64,000 bases of DNA from a virus. The translations under genes were made by a program, and so were the position numbers. Within the stretch, counting starts at the first letter, position 1. Each line of letters starts with the position of its first letter. The stretch lies in IMG/VR virus record IMGVR_UViG_3300009551_000005, positions 1-64,000 of that record; one strand, given 5' to 3'. Positions 4,816 through 59,470 of this stretch are shown here, in pieces. Under the pieces are notes generated by a model. That model did not search any database. It saw nothing but the letters and a program-made list of their open reading frames with translations, and had not been told where the DNA came from.

Positions 4816-4839
4816 CCGTCGGTGATCGATCACCGACGG
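4816..4839. repeat. 24-bp perfect palindrome, copy 1
   Basis: CCGTCGGTGATCGATCACCGACGG (extends to 28 bp, 4814-4841), right after the terL stop and abutting GCGGCAT. Confidence 0.97.
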
Positions 4840-4855
4840 CGGCATGCCGGTGGTC

Positions 4856-5155
4856 ATGAAACCCACCATTCGCCCCGAAGACGTCCTCGCAGTCAGTGAC
4901 TCCTATCTCATCGCGGTGCCCGCCGCGCAGGTTCAAGCCTTCCGCGAGCTCGCGCGCGTCCACGCGGAGCTCGATGCGACGGACAAGCGCCTCTGCAACG
5001 AGTCCGAGGCGCTCTCGAAGGCCATTCGTGACCTCCTCGCCGGTGACGCAGACGTGACCATCGGACAGCTCCGTGAACTGGCCGCTGTTGTGGATCGCCT
5101 ACTTGTTCAACGCGGAGCTCTCGCACCGCGTTTACGACATCCGGCGCATGGCTGA
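4856..5155 (+). CDS. hypothetical protein
   Basis: ORF; ATG 4856 chosen because it lies 10 nt after GCGGCAT. Confidence 0.55.
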   Translation: MKPTIRPEDVLAVSDSYLIAVPAAQVQAFRELARVHAELDATDKRLCNESEALSKAIRDLLAGDADVTIGQLRELAAVVDRLLVQRGALAPRLRHPAHG

Positions 5156-5480
5156 CGACCTGCGCGGACGCGGAGAGATCGCCGCGGCGCTGGCCACCGA
5201 GAAGGTCCTCGCGCACCTGAAGGCGGCGGAGGCGCTCCAGAAAGAGCTCGAGGACGTCTGGCACGCGGTGGAGTGGCATCGCTCTGGCGACTGGAGCGCG
5301 GAGGCAGTCATCAAGGCGTGCCGTGAGCACGAGGCGAAGCACAAGCCCGCGCGCGAGGAGTGGGTGGCGATGGCCGTCGTCATCAGCCTCGAGGAAGTCT
5401 CGCGCATGGCGCACGAGCAGCTTCTCAGAGCGATCAGCGGCATCGATCCAGACGCGAGCGGTTCGCCGCGCCGGAGCTGA
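5148..5480 (+). CDS. hypothetical protein
   Basis: ORF with DVWHAVEWHRSGD segment. Confidence 0.55.
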   Translation: MADDLRGRGEIAAALATEKVLAHLKAAEALQKELEDVWHAVEWHRSGDWSAEAVIKACREHEAKHKPAREEWVAMAVVISLEEVSRMAHEQLLRAISGIDPDASGSPRRS

Positions 5481-5543
5481 GTCCCGGCCGCGGACGGGTA
5501 CTTGGGATCGCCGTCGGGAGGTTCGACTCCTCCCCGGCGGACC
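5460..5543 (+). ncRNA. tRNA-like structured element
   Basis: T-arm GGGAGG-TTCGACT-CCTCCC, closing stem GGTTCGCCG/CGGCGGACC, two further stems; anticodon arm non-canonical. Confidence 0.5.
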
Positions 5544-5568
5544 GCTCGCCTTCATCAGGAGGCAAGCG

Positions 5569-6198
5569 ATGGAATCATCGGCGAAGGACTTCAGCGAGAT
5601 CGCTGACGCGCTCAGAGACCAGGGTTGGACGCTGGAGAAGACGGCGGACAATCACATGAAGGCGTTCCCACCGGACAAGACGAAGAGCATGGTCGTCTTC
5701 AGCGCCAAGAGCGGAGACTTCCGAGCGATACGGAACACGATCGCGCAGCTCCGAAGGTCTGGTTTCCAGTGGCCGCCCAGAGACGGGTTCGTTCCGCCGG
5801 CTCCACTGCCGCTCATGCCCCATCCGCTCCGTCCGGCGAGCAACAGGAACATCGAGCGCGAAGTTGTCGCGGAGGTGACCGCGCAGGTGCTCGCGCCGCT
5901 GGAGAAGATCGCGGTGGAAGTCCTCGCCGGCAAGGCGACGAACGAGGAGCTCGACGAGTACGTGGAAGCGCATCCGCCCGCGCCTCCACCGTCGCAAGGC
6001 GACGCGCTCGAGGCGCTCTTTCGTGAGCTGAAGGACGCGAAGCAGAACCTCGTGCTCTGCGACGAGATGGTCGCTCACTGCGCGGAGGTCCTCGAGAAGG
6101 CTCGGTTGGACCACGAGGATGCGAAGAGCGAGAGCGTGCGCGCAGTGGAGCGCCTGCGGCAGGCCAAGGCGAAGTTCGATGCGGAGTTCGGCCGATGA
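5569..6198 (+). CDS. HicA-like (dsRBD-fold) domain protein with C-terminal coiled coil
   Basis: ALRDQGWTLEKTADNHMKAFPPD...SGDFRAIRNTIAQLRRSG pattern; AGGAGG RBS. Confidence 0.65.
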   Translation: MESSAKDFSEIADALRDQGWTLEKTADNHMKAFPPDKTKSMVVFSAKSGDFRAIRNTIAQLRRSGFQWPPRDGFVPPAPLPLMPHPLRPASNRNIEREVVAEVTAQVLAPLEKIAVEVLAGKATNEELDEYVEAHPPAPPPSQGDALEALFRELKDAKQNLVLCDEMVAHCAEVLEKARLDHEDAKSESVRAVERLRQAKAKFDAEFGR

Positions 6199-6677
6199 GC
6201 GCTCTTCTCGACGCCGTTCGGCCCATCCTCGGAGCGCCGCTCACGGGCGCGATTGGTCGCGCGTTCCACTTCATGGAGGTCGCGGAGGACGAGATCGCGC
6301 GAGCGTGCGCCGGCAAGCGCGGGAAGCTGCGTGAACGCGTGCACGGCTCGTTTCGCCATCTCGCGCCCGGACCGCTCATCGGGCTCTGCGATGACGTCTA
6401 CAGACACCATTGCCGGGAGATCATCGAGCGCGTCGCGCGCGCCGAAGACGTGCGCCCGGCGACGAAGGCGGAGGTCATGGCGCTCATCTCGCAGGCCAGC
6501 CTCGCCGCGCCGCCCACGCACGTCGCCGGAGCGCTCATGCTGCGCATCTTCAACGAGGTGTTCCCCGAGAATCCCCAGCCGGTCGACGGACACTTCGCGG
6601 CAGTCCCGCGGGCCGACGTCGACGAGCTCTTCGCCGAGATGCGCAAGAAGGGCGCGCGGCATCGCGGAAAGCCATGA
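6195..6677 (+). CDS. hypothetical protein
   Basis: ATGA-coupled ORF. Confidence 0.65.
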   Translation: MSALLDAVRPILGAPLTGAIGRAFHFMEVAEDEIARACAGKRGKLRERVHGSFRHLAPGPLIGLCDDVYRHHCREIIERVARAEDVRPATKAEVMALISQASLAAPPTHVAGALMLRIFNEVFPENPQPVDGHFAAVPRADVDELFAEMRKKGARHRGKP

Positions 6678-8886: not shown

Positions 8887-9223
8887 GCGCCTCTGGCGCG
8901 CGGTCACCACGGAGGCGGAGCGGAAGAAGCTCATCGAGGATGCGCCCATCGAGGACGTGGAGCTCGACAAGCTGCACGCCACGCAGCACTCCGTCGTCCG
9001 CTCCAACGTGGAGCGGTACATCAAGGATCCCGGCGCGAAGCCATCGGCCATGGGGCCGAGCAACAGGCACGCGCGGCACGGCGGCAAGGTGGACTTCCCG
9101 ATCGTGTTCGTCGTCGACGGGCAGTGGCTCATCTACGACGGTCACCACCGCCTCACGGCGCACAAGCTCCAGGGCGATGAGTTCGCGCGAGCGCGCGTGG
9201 TGAGGCTCTCCGAAGCGGCATGA
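8762..9223 (+). CDS. ParB/Sulfiredoxin N-terminal-domain protein
   Basis: VELDKLHATQ...PIVFVVDGQWLIYDGHHRLTA motif. Confidence 0.8.
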   Translation: MSLEGWATKESGGTKRKALRRLERLPTSETGRGAAVPFPHAERLWRAVTTEAERKKLIEDAPIEDVELDKLHATQHSVVRSNVERYIKDPGAKPSAMGPSNRHARHGGKVDFPIVFVVDGQWLIYDGHHRLTAHKLQGDEFARARVVRLSEAA

Positions 9224-10971: not shown

Positions 10972-10988
10972 GGCGGCATCGACGCCGC

Positions 10989-12855: not shown

Positions 12856-12872
12856 GCGGCATCGACGGAGGC

Positions 12873-13120: not shown

Positions 13121-13522
13121 TTAGCCCGAGTTCGGGAGGAGCGAACTGTCGACGGCGTTCGGCGTCTTCAGGTCGTACATCGCCAGCATGTCCACCGCGG
13201 CTTGCACGACCAACGCCTTGCCGAAGGGCTTCGCGCTCGTGATGCACACGGCCAGCAAGGAGTGCGCGCGCGTTCGGTAGATGAGCGTCCACCCGATGAG
13301 GGTCCTCGGCACCGTGTTGTCGGGCGCGGCGATGAGCACCTGCTTCTCGGGCGCGAGCGCGTGGATCATCAGGCCGCCGGAGAGCGCGGGGCTGTACGAA
13401 GGTCCGACGATGGAGAGACGCGCGTCGCCAGGCAGCTCCACGTAGTTGAAGTTCCCCAGACACTTCTTCGTGAGGAGCGCGAGATTGGCGGTGAGCGTGG
13501 CGGCGCTGAAGTCCCTGGCCAT
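13121..13522 (-). CDS. hypothetical protein
   Basis: TACGAT-N6-ATG on the minus strand. Confidence 0.6.
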   Translation of the reverse strand: MARDFSAATLTANLALLTKKCLGNFNYVELPGDARLSIVGPSYSPALSGGLMIHALAPEKQVLIAAPDNTVPRTLIGWTLIYRTRAHSLLAVCITSAKPFGKALVVQAAVDMLAMYDLKTPNAVDSSLLPNSG

Positions 13523-13540
13523 GGCGGCATCGTAGCGCGC

Positions 13541-13774
13541 ATGAACGGCAACACTCCCCAATCCCGTCGCTCTTGGTCCCAAGGCTCTCCGCCCAACGTC
13601 GTTGCGCTTCGGCCTGGGTCGCCGGCGGCCAAGTTCAAGCCCGTGAAGATCCGCTACTCGTTCATCGAGCGCATGGACTTCTTCCTCATCGATCACCCGC
13701 GCATCGTCGCCGCGGCGCTCATCTTCTCGCTCGCTGCCATCGGCGCGCTCCTCGCCATCCTGGTCACGCGCTGA
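13541..13774 (+). CDS. small membrane protein
   Basis: C-terminal TM segment; GCGGCAT-N10-ATG. Confidence 0.55.
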   Translation: MNGNTPQSRRSWSQGSPPNVVALRPGSPAAKFKPVKIRYSFIERMDFFLIDHPRIVAAALIFSLAAIGALLAILVTR

Positions 13775-16938: not shown

Positions 16939-16963
16939 GCCCTCCCGCGGCATCGCAGCGGGC

Positions 16964-22580: not shown

Positions 22581-22722
22581 GCGCGTCGACGGTGGCAGCG
22601 ACGAGCCTCGCCTTGTAGTCCAAGCCCCCGCCCGCGACCTTCACGCCCATCCACTTCGCGAGCCTCGCCACCTTCTCCGTCTCCATGAACGGGAGGTAGG
22701 CCGCCGTGTCGTTGTCCGCCAT
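22504..22722 (-). CDS. small hypothetical protein
   Basis: GCGGCAT-N11-ATG on the minus strand. Confidence 0.45.
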   Translation of the reverse strand: MADNDTAAYLPFMETEKVARLAKWMGVKVAGGGLDYKARLVAATVDALRNQATPSPRPSRAPARRRSERAAP

Positions 22723-22795
22723 GCGCGGATGCTATGCCGCTCGGCCCCTCCCTGGTACCGTCCTCTCACAAGGAAGAAAGAGGAGGCAGACGGTC

Positions 22796-24100
22796 ATGGC
22801 TAAGTGGATCCTGCTCAACAAGGTCGCCATCGGAGGCCTGACCCAGTTCCCCGGCATCACGGTCGACGACACCGCGCAGGCGTCTCGTTACCAGGCCATT
22901 CTTGCTGCCAACGGCGTGTTCACGCAGAGCACCAACGCCGCAGTCGCCGCGATGGCAGCTTTCGTGACTGCGCAGCACGCGGCGAAGGGCATCAGCGAAG
23001 ATCTCGCGCAGTCGTACATGTTCGCGTCGCTCCTCGGTTCTCTCCAGATTGGCGGCGAGAGCGCGACGGGCGCCATTACCGCAGGCACGACGCGCACGCG
23101 CGCGGGGGCGACTGCGCTCACGAGCACGGTCAACTTCGTCACCACCTCCACTGCACCGGCTGCGGGCACTGTTCTCGGTGATGGCGTCGTCCTGAGGGCC
23201 TCGACTCCGGGTGTTACCCAGAAGGTCGCCAACTCGACCGCGAACGTCATCCAGGTCTACGCGGCCGGTTCGGACACCATCAACGGCATCGCCGGCGCGA
23301 CGGGCGTCCCCGTGCCGCCTGGCGACGTCGCCTACTTCGAGTGTGCGGTGGCTGGCGCGTGGATGTTCGAAGCGGGTCTCGGTGCAACGGGCCAGCTCTC
23401 GCTCGTCCTCGCGTGCGACGGCATCACCGCGGCGGGCACGAGCCAAGCGACGGCAACGCAGCTCGTGGCGAACATCAACAACGTCACGACCGTCGCTGCC
23501 GGAACCGGTGTGAACCTCCCCGCGAGCGCGCCGGGGCAGGACATCACCATCATGAACAACGGAGCCAATCCGCTCCTCGTCTATCCGCTCCAGGGCGCGA
23601 CGGACACCATCAACGGTGTCGCTGCGACGACCGGCATTGCCATTCACCCGGGCACTACGGCCACGTTCAACTCGAGCGCCGCAGGTGCGTGGACCGTGCA
23701 GCCTGCATCCCCGGTCATGGTGAAGCGGAACAACCCCGCGCAGACCGACGCCGCCTACCAGCTCACCGCGGCGGACATCACCGGCGGCGTGGCGGAGGTC
23801 GATGCCATCTTCACGACCACCATCACCGCGGGCCGCACGCTCACGCTTCCGACGCCTGCGCAGCTCGTCGCCGCGCTGCACGCTCCGACGGTGGGTACGA
23901 GCTACAAGCTGCGGATCATCAACGCGCAAGCTGGTGCGTTCAGCTTCACGGTCGCGAACAACGCGACTCCGTGGACGCTGGTCGGCTCTCCCACGCTCAC
24001 CATCGCGCAGAACACCTGGCGCGACTTCGTGGTCACGGTGACTGCGGTCGGCACTCCGGCGGTCTCTCTCGCGGCGGCTGGCACCGGCACCTACTCCTGA
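22796..24100 (+). CDS. putative head fibre/decoration protein 1
   Basis: A/T/G-rich; internal duplication (DTINGIAGATG / DTINGVAATTG); shared N-terminal module. Confidence 0.7.
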   Translation: MAKWILLNKVAIGGLTQFPGITVDDTAQASRYQAILAANGVFTQSTNAAVAAMAAFVTAQHAAKGISEDLAQSYMFASLLGSLQIGGESATGAITAGTTRTRAGATALTSTVNFVTTSTAPAAGTVLGDGVVLRASTPGVTQKVANSTANVIQVYAAGSDTINGIAGATGVPVPPGDVAYFECAVAGAWMFEAGLGATGQLSLVLACDGITAAGTSQATATQLVANINNVTTVAAGTGVNLPASAPGQDITIMNNGANPLLVYPLQGATDTINGVAATTGIAIHPGTTATFNSSAAGAWTVQPASPVMVKRNNPAQTDAAYQLTAADITGGVAEVDAIFTTTITAGRTLTLPTPAQLVAALHAPTVGTSYKLRIINAQAGAFSFTVANNATPWTLVGSPTLTIAQNTWRDFVVTVTAVGTPAVSLAAAGTGTYS

Positions 24101-27183: not shown

Positions 27184-29832
27184 ATGAAGAAGTCCTGGGT
27201 CACGCTGGCCGCCGCGGTCATCGCCGCGCTCGCGGTCTCACTGGTCATGCACGTCGCGCTCAAGTCGCGCGCCGGCTCGCAGCGCCTCGGAAGCTTCATC
27301 CCGAGCGTGGAGCACCCCGCGAGCGTCACCGTCGACACGAGCGTGCTCACGCACGACGGGGGCACGCAGTACCCGAGCGGCACCGTCGTCTACGTCTACG
27401 GCGCCAGGGCGCTGCCGGCGAGCAACGCGATGGCGCTCCCGGGCAACAACGCCACGGGCATGTCGGCGAACGCGATCGGAGTCTTCGAGGGCACGAGCGG
27501 GCAGATCCAGACGAGCGGCGAGGTGCTCGACGCGCAGTTCACCGCGCAGGGTGGCAAGCCCGTCGTCGGCCAGTACGCGTGGGTGGCGAACAAGGCGGAC
27601 GACAACGGCACGGGGGACGGGAAGTTCACCGCGACCAAGCCGAGCGCCGCGATCCAAACCCAGGGCTACACGGGCACGGACCGCTTCAACTACCCGCGCA
27701 CGATCGTGAAGGCGTTCCTCGTCACCGACGCCTCGGGCTACGCGCCCTCGTGCGATGGTGGCACCTGCTCGTGCGCGGCGCCCGCGACGTGCACCGCGAA
27801 GGGCATCCTCGTGAAGCCGGAGATGGAGAAGACGGCTTCTGTGACCTCGATGCCGCCGAGCGGCACGCGGTGGAGCAAGACGGGCTACAGCGGCTTCACC
27901 GGCACCGACTACTTCTCGGCCGCGTACAACGCGACCGGCGCGGACCTGCGCGACGGCGACGTCTTCGTCATCACCTGGCAGCACCCCTACGTGACCGCGA
28001 GCTACTCGATGCTCAGCAACAAGGACAGCTCCAACAACGGGTGGGAGCTCTACGTGCTGCACTCCGCTGGGCACGACTACGGGGGCATCCGCCTCTGGCA
28101 TGCGGGCGCCGACGCGGGCAACAACTTCCCCATCGCGCCCGGCGTGAACCGCATGGTGGTCCGCAACTGGCACGGGCAGACGTGCGTCGTCGTCGCGAAC
28201 GCGGGCAACCCGCTCCCCTTCACTTCGACCAACGGCTCGTTCCCGACGTGCTGGCCCAACACCGCGTGGTCGCCCGCCTCGAACAACGCCGCCAACGGCG
28301 CGCTGAAGCTCGGCACTGGGTCCGACGGCAGCACGCCCGGGACGATCTTCAACATCGCGCACTTGCGCACCACGCTCGCCGACGACGCGGGCGCGCCGAT
28401 CTCCGACGCGGACATGAACCGCTGGGCGCGCCTCGTCGTGCCGACGACGCTCAGCGACGTCTCGCGCATCGACCTCCCGGAGGAGATTACGACGCACACC
28501 GCGCTCCTCTGGGCGCAGAACGACTGGGGCAACCTCCCGCAGCCCATCACTCAGCTCGGGCCCGGCAGCCCCGTCTTCTCGTGGACGACGAACGGCAGCC
28601 CCAAGGCGGTCGCGAAGATCGAGCGCCTATGGACGGGCGAAGACCTCGCGGCCCTCTGGCGCGGGACCGGCCGCGCCGACCTCGACTCGTGGAACGTGCC
28701 GCGCGCCTCGCCGTTCGCGGAGATCACCTACACCTCGCAGGGACAGGACGCGGGCGCGGGCTTCTCGGGTGAGACGGAGATCGGAGTCCTCTACTACTCC
28801 GAGTCCCTCGACAACTCGGACCAGGTGCAGCCGGGCCTCGTCCTCGCCGACGCGGGCTTCCTCAACTACACGAACAAGATCTGGCAGGGCTCCTTCCAGG
28901 GCTCCGGCTCCGTGCAGACGGCCGGCGCGCCCGTCGACCCGAAGCGCATCAAGATCGCGTGGATCACGACCGACCCCATCTCGATGGCGGCCGACTCGCC
29001 CACCGGCCCGAAGGCCATCACGATCCTCAACGGCGGCCCGACCGAGGCGTTCTACAGCCCCGGCTTCATGGCCTACTACGGCGGCTTCGTCGTCGGTATC
29101 ATCACGCAGGACGCGCAGGTCTTCACCTCCACGGCGACGGTCCCGAAGGCCATGGTGGTGGTCGGGGACAACACGCTCCTCGGCGATAACTGCAACGGCA
29201 GCTCGACCCCGGTGCAGTGGAACTGCGCGCCCATCAACATGATGCGGCAGACGTTCCCGACCTCCGGCGGCCCGGGCGTCGTGCACGCGTTCGTCCGCAC
29301 GGGCGAGCAGACCCTCCTCGCCGCGGGTAGCAGCGGCATCGCGAGCAGCCCCGGGCTCCTCGTGAACGGCTCCACGAAGCCGGCCGCGCACATGATCCTC
29401 GACGAGTGCACGCACGAGGGCGCGACCAACTGCACGGTGCTCATCACGCTCGACGGCTTCTGGGAGTACAGCAACCAGGACGCGAGTCAGCGCCCCGCGG
29501 CGTTCGGCGTGGCGGCCGGCGCGCTCGTCGACAACGTGCACTCGCTCTGCGGGCTGGCGAACATCACCTGCAACATTTACTGGGCCTACAACCAGCGCTC
29601 GGCCTGCTCGGCGCACGCGAACACGCTCGGCGACACCTACGCCAACTACCAGAGCCAGATCTCCGGGCTCACGAGCGGGCGCGCGTGGATGCACGGTTTC
29701 GACTCCTCGACCCCGAACTCGGTGACCTTCACCAACTCGGGCACGTGCATCAGCGGCAACGGCAACCAGTGGATGAACTTCGCGGGGGCCACGAACTGGA
29801 ATCTGAACCTCAAGACGGGTGTCGCCTGGTGA
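27184..29832 (+). CDS. large membrane-anchored or virion adhesin-like protein (LamG-like + degenerate SGNH-like)
   Basis: GAGGAGAGG RBS; N-terminal TM segment; VVVGDN motif. Confidence 0.65.
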   Translation: MKKSWVTLAAAVIAALAVSLVMHVALKSRAGSQRLGSFIPSVEHPASVTVDTSVLTHDGGTQYPSGTVVYVYGARALPASNAMALPGNNATGMSANAIGVFEGTSGQIQTSGEVLDAQFTAQGGKPVVGQYAWVANKADDNGTGDGKFTATKPSAAIQTQGYTGTDRFNYPRTIVKAFLVTDASGYAPSCDGGTCSCAAPATCTAKGILVKPEMEKTASVTSMPPSGTRWSKTGYSGFTGTDYFSAAYNATGADLRDGDVFVITWQHPYVTASYSMLSNKDSSNNGWELYVLHSAGHDYGGIRLWHAGADAGNNFPIAPGVNRMVVRNWHGQTCVVVANAGNPLPFTSTNGSFPTCWPNTAWSPASNNAANGALKLGTGSDGSTPGTIFNIAHLRTTLADDAGAPISDADMNRWARLVVPTTLSDVSRIDLPEEITTHTALLWAQNDWGNLPQPITQLGPGSPVFSWTTNGSPKAVAKIERLWTGEDLAALWRGTGRADLDSWNVPRASPFAEITYTSQGQDAGAGFSGETEIGVLYYSESLDNSDQVQPGLVLADAGFLNYTNKIWQGSFQGSGSVQTAGAPVDPKRIKIAWITTDPISMAADSPTGPKAITILNGGPTEAFYSPGFMAYYGGFVVGIITQDAQVFTSTATVPKAMVVVGDNTLLGDNCNGSSTPVQWNCAPINMMRQTFPTSGGPGVVHAFVRTGEQTLLAAGSSGIASSPGLLVNGSTKPAAHMILDECTHEGATNCTVLITLDGFWEYSNQDASQRPAAFGVAAGALVDNVHSLCGLANITCNIYWAYNQRSACSAHANTLGDTYANYQSQISGLTSGRAWMHGFDSSTPNSVTFTNSGTCISGNGNQWMNFAGATNWNLNLKTGVAW

Positions 29833-30082: not shown

Positions 30083-31636
30083 GTGCTCGCTCCGAGCATC
30101 AAGTTCACGCAGGGCGTGACTGTCGGTACGCCGAACGTCGCGCTCATGGGCGTGCTCACGACGTCTGTCACCGCGCAGGCCAACACCGCCGACGGCTCGA
30201 AGCGGTGGGTGTTCTCGTGGATCGACGCACCTCCGACGTCCGCCATCACGCGCGCGCAGGCGGTGCAGGACTCGGGGTCTGTCTCCGCTCTCACCTTCTC
30301 ACCCGACGTCGCGGGCTGCTACTGCCTCCAGCTCGATTCGTACGATGCCAACGGCGCGCGAGCGACGGTCTATCTCTGCTTCGGTGTCCTGAACGCGCAC
30401 GGCAGGCTCCCGAGCTTTCCGGCGATGGTTCCTTTCGCGGGCTTCCCTGAGATCACCGCCTACCAGTGCATGAACTTCAGCGGAGGGACTCGCGGCTACG
30501 CGCCCTACGTCGAGGCCTACAACGCCGCGGTGGATGCCGGCGGCGCGGGCGGCAACGCACTCCAGCTCCAGGGCGTGGACATCTCGAACGTCGCGCCGAC
30601 GAACGGTCAGGCGCTCGTCTATGTGAACGGCACGACGAAGTGGACGCCGACGAGCCCCACGGGGAGTCTCGGCGGCACGTATCTCACGCCCACGGTCGTG
30701 GCCATCGACGGCGCGGCCGGCACCGTGCCCGTCAACTGCGCGGCGATGACGTGGGCAGACGCCGCGGGCGCCCCCGTTATCGGACAGGGCGCGCACGCAA
30801 GCGGGACGTCGGCGGTGATGACCGTCGAGTCGCAGCAGTCCTCCTCTGGGAGCGCCGGCGGCTTGGTCCTTCGCGGCGGCAAGGGCAGCGTCGCGGGCGG
30901 CAACGTCGACATCCAGGTTGCGGCCACGACGACCTACGCCGTCATCGGTCGTTTCACCTCCGCCGGGTTCTTCCCTGGCACCTCTTGGCACTCGTTCCAA
31001 AACGGCTTCATCGAGATTGGCGCCGTGGGTGGCGTCACGGTGCCGAATACGGGCACCGTCCGTCTCGTCAACAACGGCTCGCTCCAGTCCTTCACGGGTG
31101 GCGCACCCGGCACCGGGCTCTCGCTTCTCTCGTGGAGCGGCACGACCATCACGCTGGGCAACGCCTCCAACGCCTCATCGCTCAGCCTGCAGGTGGCGGG
31201 CGATCTCACGTTCACGCCTTCGGGCAAGGCAGTCATCCAGAGCGCTACCAAGTGGATGAAGGGCGGCGTCTCGCACGCGGGCTGGACGTTCTCTGACCAG
31301 GCGGACCCCCAGCTCACGAACAACACACCGACCGCGGTCTACACGTTCGCGACGAACAATGGCTCGAACTACTGCAAGGCGAAGATCGTCGGCACGCGCA
31401 ACGACCAGGCAGCGGCCTTTGCGCAGGAGCTCAAGTACGCGGCCCTGAACAACGCCGGCACCCTGAGCGACCTCGCCGTGGTGAGCACGCTCTCCGGTCC
31501 CGACTCGGTCAGCACGGGCTCCACCATCACGGCGACGATGGGTCGCTCCGGCACGAATGTGGTGGTCACCATCACGAGCAATGCCGCCGAGACCTGGAAC
31601 TTCCACGTCGAGTTCGAGGCGACTATTCAGCCGTGA
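30083..31636 (+). CDS. putative virion fibre protein
   Basis: PKD-like N-terminus, G/T/S-rich. Confidence 0.65.
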   Translation: MLAPSIKFTQGVTVGTPNVALMGVLTTSVTAQANTADGSKRWVFSWIDAPPTSAITRAQAVQDSGSVSALTFSPDVAGCYCLQLDSYDANGARATVYLCFGVLNAHGRLPSFPAMVPFAGFPEITAYQCMNFSGGTRGYAPYVEAYNAAVDAGGAGGNALQLQGVDISNVAPTNGQALVYVNGTTKWTPTSPTGSLGGTYLTPTVVAIDGAAGTVPVNCAAMTWADAAGAPVIGQGAHASGTSAVMTVESQQSSSGSAGGLVLRGGKGSVAGGNVDIQVAATTTYAVIGRFTSAGFFPGTSWHSFQNGFIEIGAVGGVTVPNTGTVRLVNNGSLQSFTGGAPGTGLSLLSWSGTTITLGNASNASSLSLQVAGDLTFTPSGKAVIQSATKWMKGGVSHAGWTFSDQADPQLTNNTPTAVYTFATNNGSNYCKAKIVGTRNDQAAAFAQELKYAALNNAGTLSDLAVVSTLSGPDSVSTGSTITATMGRSGTNVVVTITSNAAETWNFHVEFEATIQP

Positions 31637-35675: not shown

Positions 35676-35880
35676 GGCCGCCGGATGCCGCTGGACGCGA
35701 CCGCTTTCGGCTCGTAGATTCCGATCGTCACCAAGCAACAAGCCGAACGAACCACCCACCACGAGAGTACGCGCCTCGGTCAAGAGCGCGGTGAAAGGGC
35801 GGAAGTGAGGTCGAAGGCGTGGAGGCCGACGTGCGTGCCCCCGTGAGCGGCGCGCGAGGCAACCGACCGGAGATCTACCA

Positions 35881-37468: not shown

Positions 37469-37485
37469 GGCGTCGTTCGATGCCG

Positions 37486-37509
37486 CCGTCGGTGATCGAT
37501 CACAGACGG
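37486..37509. repeat. 24-bp palindrome, copy 6 (one mismatch)
   Basis: CCGTCGGTGATCGATCACAGACGG between divergent motifs. Confidence 0.95.
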
Positions 37510-40075: not shown

Positions 40076-40110
40076 GGCTCGCGCGATGCCGCCCCCGTAC
40101 GATCTTCCTT

Positions 40111-40635: not shown

Positions 40636-41476
40636 ACGGGTGCTTGGAGCTCCACGAGCGCGCGTGCTCGAGGCGCTCGTCGCCCTTCGGGCAGGGTCCA
40701 AGCTCCCCGGTGAACTGGCAGAGTCCAGCCTTGGCACGGAGGCTCTTTCTCATCATGTGGAGCGCGATGCGCGCCGCGAGCCTGCGGTTACCGCGTACCG
40801 CCTCGCGCGTGACGGGTACCGCGCCATCCCTCGAGGAGCATCCGTAGGACCACTCCCGCGCGTCGTCGTAGAGCGCGATGCCCCCGCAGTCGTAGTGCAC
40901 CTGCCAGAGCGAGACCGCGATTCCACCGTCGCAGTCACCCTGCATCATCGTGACCGCGTTCTTCGCACGCCACGCGGAGTCGTTGCACCTTTGGGCGTCC
41001 ACGTACTCGCGGAAGTGTGAGCCCTCGTAGTCGGCCACCGCGGCGAGGAGTATGGCGGTCCGCGCACGAGACTCATCACCCTCAAACGCGGGCTGCTCGC
41101 GAAGTGCCACATGCGCGATGTCGCCGGCGAGCTCCGTGAAGGGCACCGTGGCCTTCGACTCCTTCACCCACGACCGCATCGCCTCGAGGACGTGTGCGGC
41201 GAGGCGCTCCTCGACCTCCGGCGAAACTGTCGGCGGGAGAGGCGCGGGCGGAGCAGAGGAAGACGCGACGGGCACAGAGCTCGGAGCAGGAGGCGTCGGG
41301 ATGGAGACCGCTGCCACTGTCGTAAGAAGGCGCGCCGCGGAGGCGGATGTCATCGGGCGTGGAGAGGTCATCGCGTTGTCCACCGCAAGGATGACTCCGA
41401 GGAGAACGATCGCGGCTGCGAGCACACCGAAGAAGGTGAGCGCGTTCTTGAGTGCGTTTTTCATGGTGTGGTTCAT
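40619..41476 (-). CDS. membrane-anchored lysozyme/transglycosylase-like protein
   Basis: TM anchor, Pro/Ser linker, AVADYEGSHF...DGGIAVSLWQVH. Confidence 0.55.
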   Translation of the reverse strand: MNHTMKNALKNALTFFGVLAAAIVLLGVILAVDNAMTSPRPMTSASAARLLTTVAAVSIPTPPAPSSVPVASSSAPPAPLPPTVSPEVEERLAAHVLEAMRSWVKESKATVPFTELAGDIAHVALREQPAFEGDESRARTAILLAAVADYEGSHFREYVDAQRCNDSAWRAKNAVTMMQGDCDGGIAVSLWQVHYDCGGIALYDDAREWSYGCSSRDGAVPVTREAVRGNRRLAARIALHMMRKSLRAKAGLCQFTGELGPCPKGDERLEHARSWSSKHPFTDPR

Positions 41477-41519
41477 GGCGCGCGCCGGGATGCCGCGCCA
41501 GGGGTGGTAGGCTCTCCGC

Positions 41520-42299
41520 GTGGGCCTCTATGACCTCCTCCGGCAGTTCTTCGGGCCCTTCAAGAGCCCTGCTGGCGATCCGCCGGGGCAACCAGTCTCC
41601 GCGGCGAGCTTCTTCGGGCAGGTGTGGCCACCGCGCAATCCGCCGCCCATCGCAGTGCCGACAGAAGACGGTCGGACCGTCGCGCTGAGGCAGCTCCGCA
41701 CCTACGTGGCCAACCTGACGTTCTTCCGCCCGGGCAACACCGGTGCGCGCCCCATCCCCGTGCGCATTCCTGAAGACCACTTTCACATCGAGTGGCCAGA
41801 GCGCATCGAGGACATGATCATGCCGTGCATTGCGGTGGTGGAGTCCAACGGACCCTACCTCTCCATCGGACTCGGCCCGAGCTACATCGACCCGCGCTCC
41901 GAAGACGTCTACGCGCCAGGCACCGTCGTGCAGTGGCAGGCGGAGTACCGCGAGAAGATCAACCTGGAGATCTGGACAGAAGAGAAGAGCCAGCGACGCG
42001 CCATTCTCGCGGGACTCGAAACCGCGTTCTCTCCGGCGGAGCAGATCTCGGGCGTGCGCTTCCTGATGCCAGGATTCTTCGGGCAGCTCGTCACGTTCGA
42101 CCTCAACGCGCGGCGCATCATCGACGACAAGGACAGCGCGATCCGTCGCCGGCGAGCGCAGGTGGAGATGGGCATGCGTCTCACGACGGTGCGGCTCGTG
42201 AACAAGGTCACGCTGCGCCCGGTGACGAGCGCGGTGGTTGGCTTCCCCGGGGAGGTCGACCTGTCACTCGACGAGAATGCGACCGTGCTGCCTCCCTAG
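41520..42299 (+). CDS. tail terminator-like protein
   Basis: Position before the sheath; TAGGCT-N6-GTG. Confidence 0.55.
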   Translation: MGLYDLLRQFFGPFKSPAGDPPGQPVSAASFFGQVWPPRNPPPIAVPTEDGRTVALRQLRTYVANLTFFRPGNTGARPIPVRIPEDHFHIEWPERIEDMIMPCIAVVESNGPYLSIGLGPSYIDPRSEDVYAPGTVVQWQAEYREKINLEIWTEEKSQRRAILAGLETAFSPAEQISGVRFLMPGFFGQLVTFDLNARRIIDDKDSAIRRRRAQVEMGMRLTTVRLVNKVTLRPVTSAVVGFPGEVDLSLDENATVLPP

Positions 42300-45627: not shown

Positions 45628-46350
45628 ATGGAAGGCATCAAGAGGAGCTTCGGTCCCAAGATCGACAGCAGCGAGCCGTCGGCGGAGGAACGTGCGGCAG
45701 TGGGCGCTGTGGGCGGTCATCCCGCGTTTCGCGACGCACCCCCGCCTGGCGTGCCCAAGGTGAAGACGCGCGCTCCTGAGCAGGAGATCGACGAGGAGGA
45801 CGAATCGGAGCTCGTCGAAGAGGCAGGAGCTCCGCCGGACGACGACAGCCCGGGCAACGCCGCGCAGGACGACGATGACGATCCCAAGCCGAAGCTCAAC
45901 GCGGCGGCTGATGACGTCCCCTACCCGGACTTCGAGGAAGAGGACAACTGGCCGGCGTGGGCGGTCCTTCCCAAGCAGGTGAAGCCGAAGCCCGGCACGC
46001 GCATGGAGTGCTTCAAGTTCGAGGCGGAGCACACCGAGGACCAGCAGGAGCACTGGTGCATCGTCTGGCCGCTCAAGGACAAGGAGCAGGCCAACGCGTA
46101 CAAGAACACCGCCGGCACCGCGGAGCGCGCCATCGCGGAGCTTGCGAAGATGGGTCTGCGCGTCGTCGACGGGCTGCCCGCGCGCTGGGACGTCACGCCG
46201 GCGACGTCGGGCAGTATCATGGGTTTCTGGAACGTCATCGGCGCGAAGGGGCGCCAGATGCTCCAGGAGTGGTACGCGAAGGCTCACGCGTTCTCCAAGG
46301 AGGAGCGGAAGGTTTTTTTCGCGCGCTGCTACGGTTCCAAGAGGGCGTAG
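45628..46350 (+). CDS. tail assembly chaperone (G-like)
   Basis: Between tube and tape measure; slippery site near its end. Confidence 0.7.
   Translation: MEGIKRSFGPKIDSSEPSAEERAAVGAVGGHPAFRDAPPPGVPKVKTRAPEQEIDEEDESELVEEAGAPPDDDSPGNAAQDDDDDPKPKLNAAADDVPYPDFEEEDNWPAWAVLPKQVKPKPGTRMECFKFEAEHTEDQQEHWCIVWPLKDKEQANAYKNTAGTAERAIAELAKMGLRVVDGLPARWDVTPATSGSIMGFWNVIGAKGRQMLQEWYAKAHAFSKEERKVFFARCYGSKRA
46314..46320 (+). other. -1 programmed frameshift site (T TTT TTC) giving a GT-like extension to 46613
   Basis: T7 run in a GC-rich gene; the -1 frame is open and coding-like to 46613. Confidence 0.75.
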
Positions 46351-46705
46351 CAGCGGGGGACGACATCGAGGACGCGCTGGAGGCGCTGGGCGGGGACAGG
46401 ATCTTGCTCGCCTACGCCTTCGCGCAGTCCTGCGACCCGGACGACATGCTGAGGAAGATGAAGCGTCAGCACATCTACCTGTGTCGGTACATGCACGTGT
46501 CGCTCGAGCGCGTCGAGGACATGGATGCCGAGGAGATCCGCGACTACATGGAGGAGCTCTCCGAGGTCATCAAGCAGGAGACTCCCACGCCGGCGGGGCC
46601 CGGCTCGCAGTGAGCTCCCAGCCCGCCGAAGGGGTGCACCTCTCCGGCGGGCCAGTTCCGGCATCCGCCCCGTGGGCGGTCTGACCGACAGCTCTCCTGA
46701 TGCCG

Positions 46706-46729
46706 CCGTCGGTGATCGATCACCGACTG
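46706..46729. repeat. 24-bp palindrome, copy 7 (one mismatch)
   Basis: ...CACCGACTG, then TGG-TAGCGT-N6-ATG of the tape measure gene. Confidence 0.95.
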
Positions 46730-46744
46730 TGGTAGCGTCACCAC

Positions 46745-48682
46745 ATGGCAGGCAGCGGCCCGTCGGCAGAAGTCAGGATCTCGCTTCAGGTCGAAGAGGC
46801 CAAGGCGCACGCCGCCATCGCGCGCACGAGCGCGATGTTCGGGAAGATCGCGCAGTCGGCGCAGCGCGCGCTGCACGGCGCCATGGAGGCGGTGTCGGGA
46901 TTCGCTTCCACGATGTTCAAGGCCGCAGGGATCGCCGGGCTCGTCGGCGGCCTGGCAGGAGGTTTCGGCCTCGTCGAAGGCGCCATGGAGGCGGCGCGCG
47001 CGGCGGAGAGTCAGAAGAAGGCCATCGCTCAGACATTGGCCATCACGGACCAGAGCGGCGCGTCTTTCGCGCAGCTCAAGGTGAAGGCCGCCGGGCTCCG
47101 CGAGGAGTTCGTCGAGATGGGGATGAAGGCCGGAGTCATGGGCTCCGAGGTGGCCTCCATCTTCCAGGAGATCGCGGAGAGAAGCGGGCGGCCAACGTCT
47201 GCGGTGAAGGAGCTCACCGAGAAGATCGTGCAGGCCGGGCGCGTGGTCGGTGACACCGAGACCATCACGCGGGGCATGCGCATGCTCGAGATGGGCATGA
47301 CGGGTGCGCGCAACCCGATCGTGGCGCTCATCCGGTCCACCGGTGTCCTCAAGGGTTCCATCCACGACGTCTCGCACGCGCTCTCGAAGATGAAGCCGGA
47401 GGACCAGCTCCGCGCCGGTGAGGAGGCCATCAACAAGCTCGCCGCCAAGGCGAAGGATCTGCCGCTCACGTTCGGGCAGATGGCCAATCAGCTCAAGCAG
47501 ATGAAAGAGAACGTCCTCGAGAACATCGGGGGTCCTCTCATCAGCGGGATCATGCCGGCGCTCATGGAGGTCCAGAAGTGGATCGCTGGTCACCGGCGCG
47601 AGATTGAGGCCTACGCGAAGGCGCTCGGGCAGAAGGTCGGCGAGTGGGTGAAGGCGGCTGCCAAGATGATGGGCGAGGCCTTCAAGTGGATCGACACGCA
47701 CTCGAAGGAGATCTCCGACGCCATTCAGGGCGCGGCGTCGGCGCTCAAGTCCGTCTTCAGCTTCATCATCGCGCACAAGGAGGTCATCGCCGGGATGTTC
47801 GCGGCGAAGGCGCTCGGCGGGTTGGTGGGAATGGGTGGTAAGGCCGGAGCCGCCGCCGCGGGTATCGGCATCTACAAGGAGATTCTCGAGGGCGTGAAGG
47901 ATGCGGTCGACAAGGCCTTCGTCCACAAGGAGACGAAGCACGAGGCGGCTGGCGCGAACATGAACGCTGGCATGGACGCCATCCAGCAGATGTACAAGGC
48001 CAAGAACCTCCAGGGGCTCCTCGACTACCAGAAGCAGTTCGTCGAGTACGCGGAGCAGTGGGACGGCGAGAAGGGCAAGAAGGCCGCCACGAAGTTCATC
48101 GACAAGTACATCAACGCGCTGTGGGACGAGCAGTCTCGCCAGTCCGACCGGATGCACGATCTCGCGATGAAAGCCGACGACGGCCGGCGGACCATCCAGG
48201 ACACGCTCATCGAGATCGGCAAGGCGAAGGACTCCTACGGGAAAAACTTCATGGGACCGACACCGGACTTCGAGGGGCAGTCGAACGAGCAGGGCGCTTA
48301 CATCGCGAAGATCTACAACGACGCCATCACAGCGCAGGACCAGGGCATGCAGATGCAGGCCGCGATCCTCCTTCGCTCGAGCGACATGGCGCGCCAGGCG
48401 CTCATCAACTCCGGCGTGGAGATCTCCGAGGGCATCGACAAGCTCGCGGCCATGGTCGGAGGCTCTGCGGGCGAAGCGCTCAAGAAGCTCTTCACGGATC
48501 GCCAGGCGTCGCTCAACAAGCCGACGATGACGCAGAACTTCAGCGGCGGCCAAACGTTCCACATCACGCAGGACTTCAGGAAGGCGGACCCCGACAACGT
48601 GGCGATCGTCACGCGGAAGGACACCTTCAAGCGGGCGTTCGCGCGCGGCTTCGCGAAGACCGCCATCTTCCAGGGCAGCTAG
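46745..48682 (+). CDS. tape measure protein
   Basis: 645-aa Ala-rich helical protein after the chaperone. Confidence 0.8.
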   Translation: MAGSGPSAEVRISLQVEEAKAHAAIARTSAMFGKIAQSAQRALHGAMEAVSGFASTMFKAAGIAGLVGGLAGGFGLVEGAMEAARAAESQKKAIAQTLAITDQSGASFAQLKVKAAGLREEFVEMGMKAGVMGSEVASIFQEIAERSGRPTSAVKELTEKIVQAGRVVGDTETITRGMRMLEMGMTGARNPIVALIRSTGVLKGSIHDVSHALSKMKPEDQLRAGEEAINKLAAKAKDLPLTFGQMANQLKQMKENVLENIGGPLISGIMPALMEVQKWIAGHRREIEAYAKALGQKVGEWVKAAAKMMGEAFKWIDTHSKEISDAIQGAASALKSVFSFIIAHKEVIAGMFAAKALGGLVGMGGKAGAAAAGIGIYKEILEGVKDAVDKAFVHKETKHEAAGANMNAGMDAIQQMYKAKNLQGLLDYQKQFVEYAEQWDGEKGKKAATKFIDKYINALWDEQSRQSDRMHDLAMKADDGRRTIQDTLIEIGKAKDSYGKNFMGPTPDFEGQSNEQGAYIAKIYNDAITAQDQGMQMQAAILLRSSDMARQALINSGVEISEGIDKLAAMVGGSAGEALKKLFTDRQASLNKPTMTQNFSGGQTFHITQDFRKADPDNVAIVTRKDTFKRAFARGFAKTAIFQGS

Positions 48683-53680: not shown

Positions 53681-53708
53681 TTGCGCTATAGCGCAGGTGG
53701 TTTATAGT
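53681..53708 (+). promoter_or_regulatory. sigma70-type promoter with overlapping 14-bp palindrome
   Basis: TTGCGC-N16-TATAGT, A-tract upstream; TGCGCTATAGCGCA at 53682-53695. Confidence 0.65.
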
Positions 53709-53751
53709 TTCCCTTATGAGCGGCGCTGAGGGCGCGAAAGGGGAAACGACG

Positions 53752-57019: not shown

Positions 57020-57028
57020 TCTCCATCC

Positions 57029-58138
57029 GTGGACCTCGCGACGCGCCTCGACCTCTTTCAGACCGGCCGGCAGTTCTTTCGCCAGCGCACGACGAGCATC
57101 GACCCCGCCCAGGTCGACATCCTCGGATCGGATGCGAACCTCATCGTGGGTGGCCAGTCCGTCATGGCCGCGAAGGTCGTGCAGCAGGTGGCCTACCAGA
57201 GCGGTCGGCACTTCGTGGCCGGGTGCTTCGATGAAGATCTCGACCGCTACGCGTACGACAAGTGCTTCGGGCTCCTGAGGAAGGGCGCATCACCGGCGGT
57301 CTCGCAAGTGCGCTTCTTCCGCGCCGGCGGTGCATCAGGAAGCATCCCCGCGGGCACCGTTCTTCGCACCGTCGGCGGGCAGGTGGAGCACGTGATGGTC
57401 ACGCCGGCGGTCTTCTCTTCCGGCGGTCTCTCCGCGACGTGTTTCACGCGCGCGACGCAGGCGGGCAAGAGCTCGCAGACCGGCGCGAACACCATCCGCA
57501 CGTTCGCCAACCCGACGGCCATCTTCGACCAGACGATCCAGCTCACGAACGACGTGGCCACCGCTGGCGGTGAAGACCGCGAGGACGACGACACGTTCAA
57601 GGGACGCATCATCCAGTTCCCGCAGAGCCTCGCGAAGGGGACGAACCCCGCCATCCAGTTCGGCGCGCTCACCGTGCCCGGAGTCGTGAGCGCGCTGGCA
57701 CAAGATGCGGTCGACCCGTCGGGTAACAGCGCACGCGTCGTGAACCTCTTCATCGCGGACTCGACGGGCGTCGCCAACGCGGCTCTCGTCGCCAACGTGG
57801 TTTCCGTCCTGCCCGAGTACAAGGCCGGAGGCATCGCGGTCGTCCTCTTCACGAGCATCCCGCAGATCCTGTCGATCGTGACCGCGCTCCAGTTCTCGGG
57901 GAACGTGGACACGGTCTCGCTGACCGCCGCGGTGTGGAACGCGCTCGTGGAGTTCGTGAACACGCTGCCCGTCAACGCGCCGCTCTACAGGAGCGACCTT
58001 CTTGCGGTCGTGCGCAGGTTCAAGCCGCTGGGCGTGGTGCCGTGGGGTGGGAGCATCGTGTCGCCGGCGGGGGACGTCTTCCCCACGCTCGGTCAGACCA
58101 TCAGGACGAGCCTCGCGTACGTCAGCGCTGCTTCCTAG
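57029..58138 (+). CDS. baseplate J-like protein
   Basis: IPAGTVL, GGEDREDDDTFKGRI, ALTVPGV. Confidence 0.88.
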   Translation: MDLATRLDLFQTGRQFFRQRTTSIDPAQVDILGSDANLIVGGQSVMAAKVVQQVAYQSGRHFVAGCFDEDLDRYAYDKCFGLLRKGASPAVSQVRFFRAGGASGSIPAGTVLRTVGGQVEHVMVTPAVFSSGGLSATCFTRATQAGKSSQTGANTIRTFANPTAIFDQTIQLTNDVATAGGEDREDDDTFKGRIIQFPQSLAKGTNPAIQFGALTVPGVVSALAQDAVDPSGNSARVVNLFIADSTGVANAALVANVVSVLPEYKAGGIAVVLFTSIPQILSIVTALQFSGNVDTVSLTAAVWNALVEFVNTLPVNAPLYRSDLLAVVRRFKPLGVVPWGGSIVSPAGDVFPTLGQTIRTSLAYVSAAS

Positions 58139-58865
58139 ACTTCGTCGCAACTGGCGGAGGAAGAAGCATCGGGATGATCCCGATGGGACGCTCGAGCGTC
58201 TTCGTGATGAGGTGCATGACCTGCGCTCCACCACCGCGGACGATGTGCCGGATGGACGACCTCGCGTTCCTCAAGACATCAGCCACGCGGCAGAGTCCCT
58301 CCCACGCCTCATCTGAATATGGAATCACCGCGACATCGTTCCAATCGCCGTGGTACTCGCGCGCACCATCGCCGACTGCTCGAAGCCTGCGCATCTCCTC
58401 AGCGTCTTTCTCCCAGCCCTTCAAGCTTTGCTCGAAGTCCTTGGAGTGTGAACGCGTGAACCACCGGTCTTGCCGCTTGTTGCTGCCGTCGTACCTCCTG
58501 TTGACCTTCGTGATCCCGGCGGTGTCGTTTCCGCGGACCAACGCTCGCTCGAGCCGTTCGAACGACAGCTTCACGTGGACTTCGACGTCGTTCATCTTTT
58601 CCCTGTCGAGGGGTTCGAACGCGTCGGGTTTCTCCCACTTGGAAAGGTCCGAACCGACCGTGATGACTGGCTCCCACACGTATCGGATCACCTTCTCGAG
58701 CTCCGCCTGAGCCTTTTCCTTCACCTCGTTGATGGTGTCCGCGCGCAACTCTTCGTCGCCGACCTTCGCGAAGAAGTTTTTCCTGTCACGGTCGAAGAGA
58801 ATGTCGACCCATCCGTGTTTCGTTTGGAGCTTGTCGACGACGTAGGGTTTGAGTGCGCGGCCCAT
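58122..58865 (-). CDS. hypothetical protein
   Basis: TAATG-coupled to the upstream minus-strand gene; GAGGAG RBS. Confidence 0.65.
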   Translation of the reverse strand: MGRALKPYVVDKLQTKHGWVDILFDRDRKNFFAKVGDEELRADTINEVKEKAQAELEKVIRYVWEPVITVGSDLSKWEKPDAFEPLDREKMNDVEVHVKLSFERLERALVRGNDTAGITKVNRRYDGSNKRQDRWFTRSHSKDFEQSLKGWEKDAEEMRRLRAVGDGAREYHGDWNDVAVIPYSDEAWEGLCRVADVLRNARSSIRHIVRGGGAQVMHLITKTLERPIGIIPMLLPPPVATKSRKQR

Positions 58866-59431
58866 TAGCGACTCCTCGTGAAGCACGCTTCGCGGAACAT
58901 CGCGAGAAGGACTGCGGCGGTGGATTGGGCGAGCGGTTCGAGCTTCTCCGTCGGCTTCTTCAACCCGGGGTGCTGATAGGTCCAAGGTTCGGCAGTGACC
59001 ATGAGAGTCAGAACCGGCGAAGTGACCGGGTTCACCCAATGCCATCCGTTCGGTTCCGTCATCTCGTAGCTCGAACCCTCGGGCAGACGGAGCACCATCA
59101 CAGTTTCCGCCGGGTCGCTGGAGTCACGTGAAGTGCCAACGCCCATCTCGTAGACGCCCGAAGCCTGGATGATCTTCACTGCGCTCGGCCAGGGGTGCGG
59201 GTGGTAGAGCGGCGTGCCACACGGATGGATGCGGTGGAGGTAGAGGCGAAGCGAACCGTGTTTCGGATGCTTCACGCTTCGCCAGAGCCGTTCGACGCGC
59301 GGCTTGTCGTAGTCCACGTCCAGCGACGTCCAGTCCGAGGGATCGTCGCAGATGAACGGGAGCGCGCTTTCGAAGTCTTCAAGCGCTGCGAGGAGCTCCC
59401 CTTTCCTGTATGTCCTTTTCTCTTCAGCCAT
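58865..59431 (-). CDS. cupin-like protein
   Basis: RLYLHRI...HPHPW...E...WH.V...LTLMVT; GCGGCAT-N9-ATG. Confidence 0.65.
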   Translation of the reverse strand: MAEEKRTYRKGELLAALEDFESALPFICDDPSDWTSLDVDYDKPRVERLWRSVKHPKHGSLRLYLHRIHPCGTPLYHPHPWPSAVKIIQASGVYEMGVGTSRDSSDPAETVMVLRLPEGSSYEMTEPNGWHWVNPVTSPVLTLMVTAEPWTYQHPGLKKPTEKLEPLAQSTAAVLLAMFREACFTRSR

Positions 59432-59446
59432 GGCGCCGCGATGCCG

Positions 59447-59470
59447 CCGTCGGTGATCGATCACCGACGG
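59447..59470. repeat. 24-bp palindrome, copy 9
   Basis: Exact copy between divergent motifs. Confidence 0.97.

Follow-up and report, generated by a model that had tools for sequence, protein, structure and literature searches.

In the viral genome IMGVR_UViG_3300009551_000005, a 100,493-bp IMG/VR record of 66% GC bounded by direct terminal repeats, the heptamer GCGGCAT lies a short distance upstream of the ATG of many genes. We analysed bases 1–64,000 of this record (hereafter the window) and followed the motif into its remainder, where positions are given as genome coordinates. From the evidence in the sequence, a second promoter class, specific to this phage lineage, most likely has GCGGCAT as its core, at the place of an extended −10/−10 element; a role of the motif as promoter of mostly leaderless RNAs has, in our estimate, a probability of about 0.8. 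The class marks non-virion genes.

A first, sequence-only reading of the window had listed 13 GCGGCAT sites upstream of genes, and all of them exist, with gaps of 9–11 nt and one of 13 nt (counted from the T of GCGGCAT to the A of ATG). The raw number of copies in the window is not enriched (18 versus 14 ± 4 in shuffled sequence). Their positions, proposed at the time as the check to make, are very strongly enriched: an ATG stands at a gap of 9–11 nt in 12 of the 18 copies versus 0.6 expected (binomial P = 3e-14), and a CATG in 12 of 18 versus 0.2 expected (P = 6e-20). Across the whole genome, 19 of 33 copies have an ATG at this gap versus 1.1 expected (P = 5e-20), and 22 of 33 have, at a gap of 8–14 nt, a start that opens a reading frame (ORF) of at least 60 codons (P = 2.5e-15). 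Genes were called genome-wide with a self-trained codon-usage model blind to upstream motifs, which yielded 131 genes, a few of them in minus-strand islands and almost all others on the plus strand, and which set starts at nine of the 13 listed ATGs. No 7-mer is more enriched than GCGGCAT (14 versus 0.52 expected, P = 3e-16) in the 30-nt regions that precede these 131 starts, and TAGCCT comes second. Eight of the 13 listed sites extend to GCGGCATCG, and one-mismatch variants of GCGGCAT are not linked to starts. When 21 sites are aligned, the sequence upstream of GCGGCAT carries no information content and no common −35 element, as the sequence-only reading had stated, and between motif and ATG only the C before ATG is conserved.

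Sorting all starts by their upstream features gives a class II with GCGGCAT (21 genes), a class I with TANNNT 6–7 nt before the start (21 genes), 56 genes with a Shine-Dalgarno (SD) element and 37 with none of these features. The class I consensus is GGTAGCCT, with the variants TAGGCT, TAGCGT, TACCCT, TACGAT and TATAGT; its hexamers keep T−12, A−11 and T−7 and differ in between, and its geometry is that of ordinary leaderless promoters. Class II written as GCGG-CATCGN-N6-8-ATG has a geometry equal to that of class I, so that the likeness to TANNNT promoters drawn from the letters alone is borne out. As a hexamer, CATCGN keeps only the A of TANNNT, and its position 6 is not conserved. The start codon is ATG in 21 of 21 class II genes versus 56% of the other 93 genes. 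Transcription usually starts at a purine at +1 preceded by a pyrimidine at −1, and C occupies −1 in 20 of 21 class II genes (Fisher P = 4e-6) and in 19 of 21 class I genes (P = 5e-5) versus 42% of the others. No SD-like element precedes any of the 21 class II genes, nor any class I gene; for the 13 listed genes, most of which had been described as lacking an SD, an SD-like tetramer 4–10 nt from the ATG is found in none.

The two classes serve different genes. Within the window, class II comprises ORFans of the left arm and the minus-strand islands; outside it, class II precedes a superfamily 2 (SF2) helicase, PolB, a RecA paralogue and a calcineurin-like (Mre11/SbcD-like) phosphoesterase. Class I precedes the portal gene and other genes of the virion module. 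That no listed gene looked virion-like holds up, as none of the 13 matches a virion family and the only annotation among them is a DnaA_C-like helix-turn-helix (HTH) protein (35157–35675). Three starts suggested by the motif (genome 80038, 82254 and 84999) differ from the coding-score picks (80059, 82293 and 84978); all three are in frame, are ATG and have C at −1. A further class II-led ORF, from genome 99471 (at least 341 codons, coding score 153), exits the 3′ end of the record and appears to go on in an open frame at window 1–755, so that the gene would span the terminal repeat or the junction of the record.

Two copies stand before tRNA-like, non-coding RNAs. The plus-strand copy at 5437..5443 lacks an ATG, and exactly 10 nt further on begins a tRNA-like RNA (about 5454–5546). 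A stem of 15 bp closes its fold, which has three hairpins and, in the T-arm, a GGTTCGACTCC loop; the RNA matches the tRNA-Sec model weakly (22 bits, under gathering) and is not called by ARAGORN. A second tRNA-like RNA (genome 79812–79880, or 15812–15880 in locus L011) likewise begins 10 nt after its motif at 79795. ARAGORN calls this one as tRNA-Leu(CAA); its variable arm is short, position 37 is a T, CCA is missing, and the tRNA-Sec match is again weak. At the gathering threshold Rfam gives no family in the window, and both tRNA-like RNAs score below it. All four copies without an ATG (5437, 46706, 79795 and 97220) show a pyrimidine and a purine at +10 and +11, and transcription from genome 97220 is predicted to begin on the initial A of an AGGAGG, 12 nt ahead of an ATG.

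The motif also heads each minus-strand island identified in the window, namely the six ORFs starting at 22722, 35675, 37468, 40075, 41476 and 59431 and the stretch below the 46706 copy. Most of these copies are back-to-back with a divergent class I element, the −10-type elements lying 0–29 bp apart and the divergent starts as little as 18–58 bp. Back-to-back or overlapping pairs occur at 13520–13543, 22720–22798, 37468–37544, 40075–40113, 41476–41522, 46700–46747 and 59431–59492, and two RNA polymerases could not sit on both elements of a pair at once. Within genes of the whole genome, GCGGCAT is found twice in antisense orientation versus 6.3 expected from synonymous-codon shuffles (P about 0.005) and six times in sense versus 10.9, while TAGCCT is found three times in antisense versus 10.2. 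This roughly three-fold antisense depletion of both motifs is consistent with selection against spurious antisense promoters.

The association is retained in a relative. A 65-kb viral contig with 62% GC (G001), reached through the family of the phage sigma factor described below, is syntenic with the present genome at 25–46% protein identity, and GCGGCAT is again its top upstream 7-mer (7 versus 0.44 expected), with TAGCCTC enriched too. Class II is kept before the orthologues of the helicase, PolB and 80038, and class I before those of 12370 and 41520; the back-to-back pair of both classes at the 41520 orthologue is kept as well (G001 5140–5190). The proteins of the minus-strand islands have no homologue in G001. 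Together, the tRNA-like RNAs, the headed islands, the antisense avoidance and the conservation favour a promoter acting at the level of DNA. Four window copies have a 20-bp palindrome, GTCGGTGATCGATCACCGAC, whose end lies 1 nt before the motif (4818–4837, 37487–37506, 46707–46726 and 59448–59467), and it occurs at others too; in G001 and locus L025 a different palindrome, CCTTGAGGTCGACCTCAAGG, holds the same place next to the motif, which suggests a lineage-specific dimeric regulator that would bind at about −18 to −38. In four distant sigma-bearing loci (L018, L020, L021 and L023), the coding strand has many copies of GCGGCAT, often as GCGGCATAAG.

Among the individual sites on the plus strand, GCGGCAT at 4839..4845 lies 10 nt from ATG 4856 (a 99-aa ORF with a weak coding score of 9.8), the palindrome 4818–4837 ending 1 nt upstream. 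GCGGCATCG at 6656..6662 falls in the last part of the preceding gene; the stop of that gene and the ATG at 6674 (84 aa, gap 11) overlap as ATGA. GCGGCAT at 9215..9221 precedes ATG 9233 (123 aa) at a gap of 11. The GCGGCATCG copies at 10973..10979 (gap 9, ATG 10989, 191 aa) and 12856..12862 (gap 10, ATG 12873, a doubtful gene with an 83-aa ORF and a coding score of −10.5) are both immediately 3′ of an upstream stop codon. Two further GCGGCATCG copies at a gap of 10 serve ATG 13541 (13524..13530, 77 aa) and ATG 16964 (16947..16953, 118 aa). The former overlaps an opposite-strand TACGAT −10 element located 6 nt before the divergent start at 13522, so that the start codons at 13522 and 13541 are only 18 bp apart and their elements overlap.

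On the minus strand, GCGGCAT at 22734..22740 (gap 11, ATG 22722, 72 aa, coding score 22.5) is back-to-back with the class I-like element GGTACCGT of the plus-strand gene 22796, and GCGGCAT at 35685..35691 (gap 9) precedes ATG 35675 of the 172-aa DnaA_C-like HTH protein. GCGGCATCG at 37480..37486 (gap 11, ATG 37468, a 91-aa ORF with a coding score of 1.0) adjoins the palindrome 37487–37506, on the far side of which stands the TAGCCT of plus-strand gene 37542. GCGGCATCG at 40086..40092 (gap 10, ATG 40075, 105 aa) is 5 nt from the divergent TACGAT of plus-strand gene 40111, and GCGGCAT at 41490..41496 (gap 13, ATG 41476, 285 aa) is 11 nt from the divergent TAGGCT of gene 41520. GCGGCATCG at 59441..59447 (gap 9) precedes ATG 59431 (188 aa), the first gene of a two-gene island; it adjoins the palindrome 59448–59467, whose far side carries TAGCCT, 7 nt and then ATG 59490. 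GCGGCAT at 46700..46706 adjoins the palindrome 46707–46726, has no ATG at 9–13 nt and has G at +11. Downstream of it lies a GC-rich, structured and hairpin-rich stretch (46565–46692, fold z −1.8) that is antisense to the end of ORF 46404–46613; the RNA below this copy could be a small RNA or the 5′ untranslated region of ORF 46329–46664. The three remaining window copies all lie within large plus-strand genes and are probably due to chance: 27850..27856 (−), antisense, and 29333..29339 (+), sense, within gene 27184–29832 have no start codon downstream, and 31581..31587 (−), antisense within gene 30083–31636, has an ATG at a gap of 8 with G rather than C at −1.

The search for a sigma factor or RNA polymerase subunit elsewhere in the genome, which the sequence-only reading had recommended, returned a single, divergent sigma-70-family gene at genome 74988–75650, outside the window. 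Its product matches Pfam Sigma70_r2 at 33.3 bits (cut-off 24); Pfam region 4 gives no match in it, the only region 4 match being elsewhere in the genome and under the cut-off. An AlphaFold model built from the family alignment (pLDDT 88.7) predicts an N-terminal domain of four helices and a helical C-terminal domain at residues 140–219 (pLDDT above 90), joined by a disordered linker (about residues 100–140). In a structure search with this model every match is a sigma factor. Residues 14–95 superimpose on sigma2 of sigma28, sigmaE, SigW and sigmaA (Z 7.6–9.6, root-mean-square deviation (rmsd) 2.2–3.5), and whole-chain alignments, at high global rmsd, run over residues 16–220 on sigma28 and 1–220 on sigmaE and also extend on sigma70 into region 4. 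Further structural matches are CnrH, AlgU and, for the sigma2 domain, gp55 (7d7c_F, Z 7.8, 93 aligned, rmsd 4.2). By sequence profiles, the best PDB match is FliA, a group 3 sigma (E = 3.5e-4), with weak matches to an extracytoplasmic-function (ECF) superfamily model and SigK; the NCBIfam ECF models all score under their cut-offs. A T7-like or multisubunit RNA polymerase gene was not found in the genome, a weak negative given that a T7-family control gave no signal.

The sigma gene is SD-led and coupled to the RecA gene, within an operon of DUF932-like, RecA, sigma and 477-aa protein genes behind a canonical TTGCGN-N16-TATAGT promoter. This promoter is part of a repeat of about 75 nt present in two copies, window 53681–53716 and genome 72409–72445 (about 8409–8445 in L011), each laid out as TTGCGC/G, a 16-nt spacer with the small palindrome GCGCTATAGCGC, and TATAGT; these are the only promoters of this sigma70 type found. 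The first copy stands 7 nt before ATG 53716 and the second heads the sigma operon. In relatives, too, the sigma gene has an SD-bearing leader. Given the canonical promoter and this leader, early production of the sigma by the host holoenzyme is plausible. Two of the metagenome loci have a tRNA-Thr(TGT) gene immediately upstream of the sigma gene (L019 1252–1326 and L018 about 2690–2765), and GCGGCATAAGGAGG comes after the sigma gene's stop codon; the tRNA in L019 has GCGGCAC 4 nt upstream, not GCGGCAT.

In metagenomes the sigma family amounts to about 460 clusters at 50% identity, and a conserved helix of the sigma reads WNAxDxAKKxxHKARG. A 30-sequence sigma alignment was too diverse for scanning; a 6-sequence alignment used in its place led to G001 and nine metagenome loci, and the closest sigma homologues, P0005, P0007 and P0151, are encoded on long contigs (65 kb for P0005, 92 kb for P0007). 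Scanning one genome per species, 185,579 species in all, with the sigma alignment gave no match, and viral-contig scans with the palindrome plus motif, the sigma, the portal and P0002 returned nothing. Among cultured phages, neither megablast with 20 kb nor tblastn with the sigma and its homologue P0003 gave a match. The sole match of a word-index protein search was the query protein itself. The portal protein has only distant matches, to Ralstonia and Komagataeibacter phages, and thus points to no cultured relative and no assignable host. The 20-bp palindrome occurs once in each of three unrelated bacterial genomes, which gives no clue to the host. Literature searches on the motif and on leaderless transcripts with phage sigmas found no paper on GCGGCAT or on the sigma family.

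If GCGGCAT is a promoter, RNA polymerase would start about 11 nt past the T of the motif, at a purine after a pyrimidine. In about 21 genes this purine would be the A of ATG, giving a leaderless mRNA that requires no SD; two transcripts would be tRNA-like RNAs, and at least one (genome 97220) would have a short SD-bearing leader. No −35 partner would be involved, and in a subset the 20-bp palindrome at about −18 to −38 would presumably be the site of a regulator. Virion genes would use class I (GGTAGCCT), which resembles the −10 of a host primary sigma, and GCGGCAT would be read by the phage's two-domain, ECF-like sigma (genome 74988–75650), in a cascade from host sigma to phage sigma to the GCGGCAT regulon. 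To this last assignment we lean with some caution. Recognition of T−7 needs a pocket formed with sigma region 1.2, which two-domain ECF-type sigmas lack; TANNNT therefore fits a host primary sigma, and GCGGCAT, without T−7, fits the phage sigma. Neither thymine is present in class II, and its 7 nt never vary, as in promoters of dedicated sigmas; by elimination this points to the phage sigma. The proposal of the sequence-only reading, a −10-only leaderless promoter for a phage-encoded or alternative sigma that defines a temporal regulon, is supported in part.

Several observations weigh against this picture. The promoter reading was made from sequence, and host and phage are both uncultured. 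Only two long genomes are available in which both motif classes and the sigma gene occur together, and their co-occurrence in both cannot tie the sigma to one class. By the usual logic of phages a phage sigma serves late (virion) genes, and here those genes carry TANNNT. In the left arm the two classes alternate from one gene to the next, an unusual pattern if each were a clean temporal class. The gap is not fixed (9, 10, 11, 13 and 14 nt), so that some transcripts would have leaders of 1–3 nt, and three of the 13 listed ORFs, 12873, 37468 and 4856, have the weak coding scores given above (−10.5, 1.0 and 9.8). In the four distant loci the link of motif to start is not significant in the short pieces available, and an AAGGAGG-like sequence often follows the motif. 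More tentatively, and in our view somewhat improbably, leaderless mRNAs of one gene each may account for much of the expression in this clade, made from two −10-only classes of which the host primary sigma would read one (GGTAGCCT) and a new phage sigma family the other (GCGGCAT), with the paired minus-strand GCGGCAT promoters serving mainly as switches on neighbouring virion promoters through sigma competition; such a role would explain why G001 retains the pair at its 41520 orthologue though the gene driven by it is not conserved.

Rather unlikely, to our mind, is the reverse assignment, in which a host sigma (an alternative one, or the primary one with a phage cofactor) reads GCGGCAT and the phage sigma reads the GGTAGCCT virion class. 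The arrangement would be the classical one, with a sigma gene in an early-looking operon and a late target class, and it accords with a TAGCCT-like class on virion genes and GCGGCAT on replication genes. Conservation in G001 and avoidance in antisense hold for TAGCCT too, and the two canonical promoters have TATAGT, not TAGCCT, so that TAGCCT need not be the host consensus. Yet the retention of T−12, A−11 and T−7 around a variable middle in class I is a hallmark of primary-type sigmas, the phage sigma model lacks region 1.2 and has just sigma2, with four helices, and a sigma4-like domain, and the invariance of GCGGCAT over 7 nt, with no mismatch tolerated, is typical of a dedicated, stringent sigma; nor do we know of any host sigma with a GCGGCAT-like −10. 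It is less probable still that GCGGCAT works in the mRNA, as a non-SD signal for initiation or coupling, as the site of a RegA-like regulator or as a processing site that yields leaderless mRNAs. The 7–9 nt from GCGGCATCG to ATG do resemble SD spacing, the copies at 6656, 10973 and 12856 lie in or right after a co-directional gene and would be present in read-through mRNA, and the associated starts are all ATG, as with the start-associated sequence (SAS) of cluster K phages (PMC3203893). Against this, two copies precede non-coding tRNA-like RNAs at an equal distance of 10 nt, the motif has no complementarity to the anti-SD, and it heads all minus-strand islands with no other conserved upstream element and with divergent starts 18–58 bp apart. 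A signal confined to sense mRNA would not be expected to be depleted in antisense within genes, the C at −1 followed by a purine at +1 suits a site of transcription initiation, and the parallel TANNNT class at 6–7 nt suggests that the phage makes leaderless transcripts.

Also very unlikely is an operator or activator half-site for a phage DNA-binding regulator beside degenerate −10 elements, without sigma contact. The motif adjoins the palindrome in several cases in both phages, and it overlaps divergent class I promoters that it could regulate; against such a role, it is asymmetric and strictly oriented to the downstream start, the 9–11 nt to a C-A start context are the geometry of a −10 element, and nothing else is conserved between motif and start. 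An origin by chance or from base composition (66% GC), for which the unexceptional window total (18 versus 14) could be cited, is refuted by positional P values of 1e-14 to 1e-29 and by the retention of the motif at orthologous genes in G001, and we regard it as extremely improbable. Three other candidates were rejected: a sigma-54 promoter (GG-N10-GC at −24/−12, with transcription starting about 12 nt beyond), as the GG of the motif has no conserved GC 10 nt further on and the ATG is too close; a hairpin or terminator, as motif and spacer show no consistent pairing; and an N4-like hairpin promoter, as the genome has no giant virion RNA polymerase gene, its largest ORF being 882 aa.

Phage sigmas with a promoter class of their own include T4 gp55, which reads the late promoters TATAAATA, and SPO1 gp28 and gp33/34. 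The present system resembles T4 gp55 and SPO1 in combining a phage sigma-70-family protein with a short, highly invariant core unlike the host consensus; like T4 late promoters it has no −35 element, and as in other phage-sigma systems the class marks a functional subset of genes. It differs from T4 gp55 in its GC-rich motif, its non-virion targets and its mostly leaderless transcripts, and no dependence on gp33 or a sliding clamp is known here. The analogy with gp55 made in the sequence-only reading thus stands loosely, as one of logic, and it does not extend to protein architecture, as the C-terminal domain in our model appears to align with region 4, which gp55 lacks. The predicted layout of sigma2, linker and sigma4-like domain in about 220 aa and the stringent, GC-containing −10 motif resemble those of ECF (group 4) sigmas, from which the system departs in having no conserved −35 such as GGAAC and no anti-sigma partner identified. 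If the assignment is right, the promoter of a previously uncharacterised phage sigma family, none of whose members was found in cultured phages, would be defined, and a compact, stringent, −35-independent pair of sigma and promoter might become available as an orthogonal expression part.

Leaderless promoters of Actinobacteria and Deinococcus carry a TANNNT −10 element 6–7 nt before the start codon. Class I (GGTAGCCT) is a textbook case of such a promoter, and GCGGCAT shares its geometry, the C at −1 and A at +1, the absence of an SD and the lack of a conserved −35. Unlike the −10 of primary sigmas, the GCGGCAT hexamer has no T at −12 and no T at −7, so that recognition by a primary sigma without help is unlikely. 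Should both classes act as proposed, about 40 of the phage's roughly 130 genes would be expressed from leaderless mRNAs. For annotation, the motif would fix the true starts of several genes (80038, 82254 and 84999) and flag small non-coding RNAs.

In form, GCGGCAT most resembles the SAS of cluster K mycobacteriophages: it has one orientation, precedes non-structural genes, lies near ATG starts and is accompanied by a palindrome that differs between lineages (the present genome versus G001). The SAS is a 13-bp sequence with an AGGAG SD core located 3–7 bp from the start, for which a translational role was proposed; it is oriented, lies before non-structural genes with mostly ATG starts, and in about half of cases has an inverted repeat immediately upstream that is specific to the sub-lineage (PMC3203893). 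Its function was still unverified in 2025 (PMC12699233). Unlike the SAS, GCGGCAT has no SD core, lies 9–11 nt from the ATG and also stands before non-coding RNAs and opposite-strand units. It offers a testable parallel for the still unexplained SAS of these phages.

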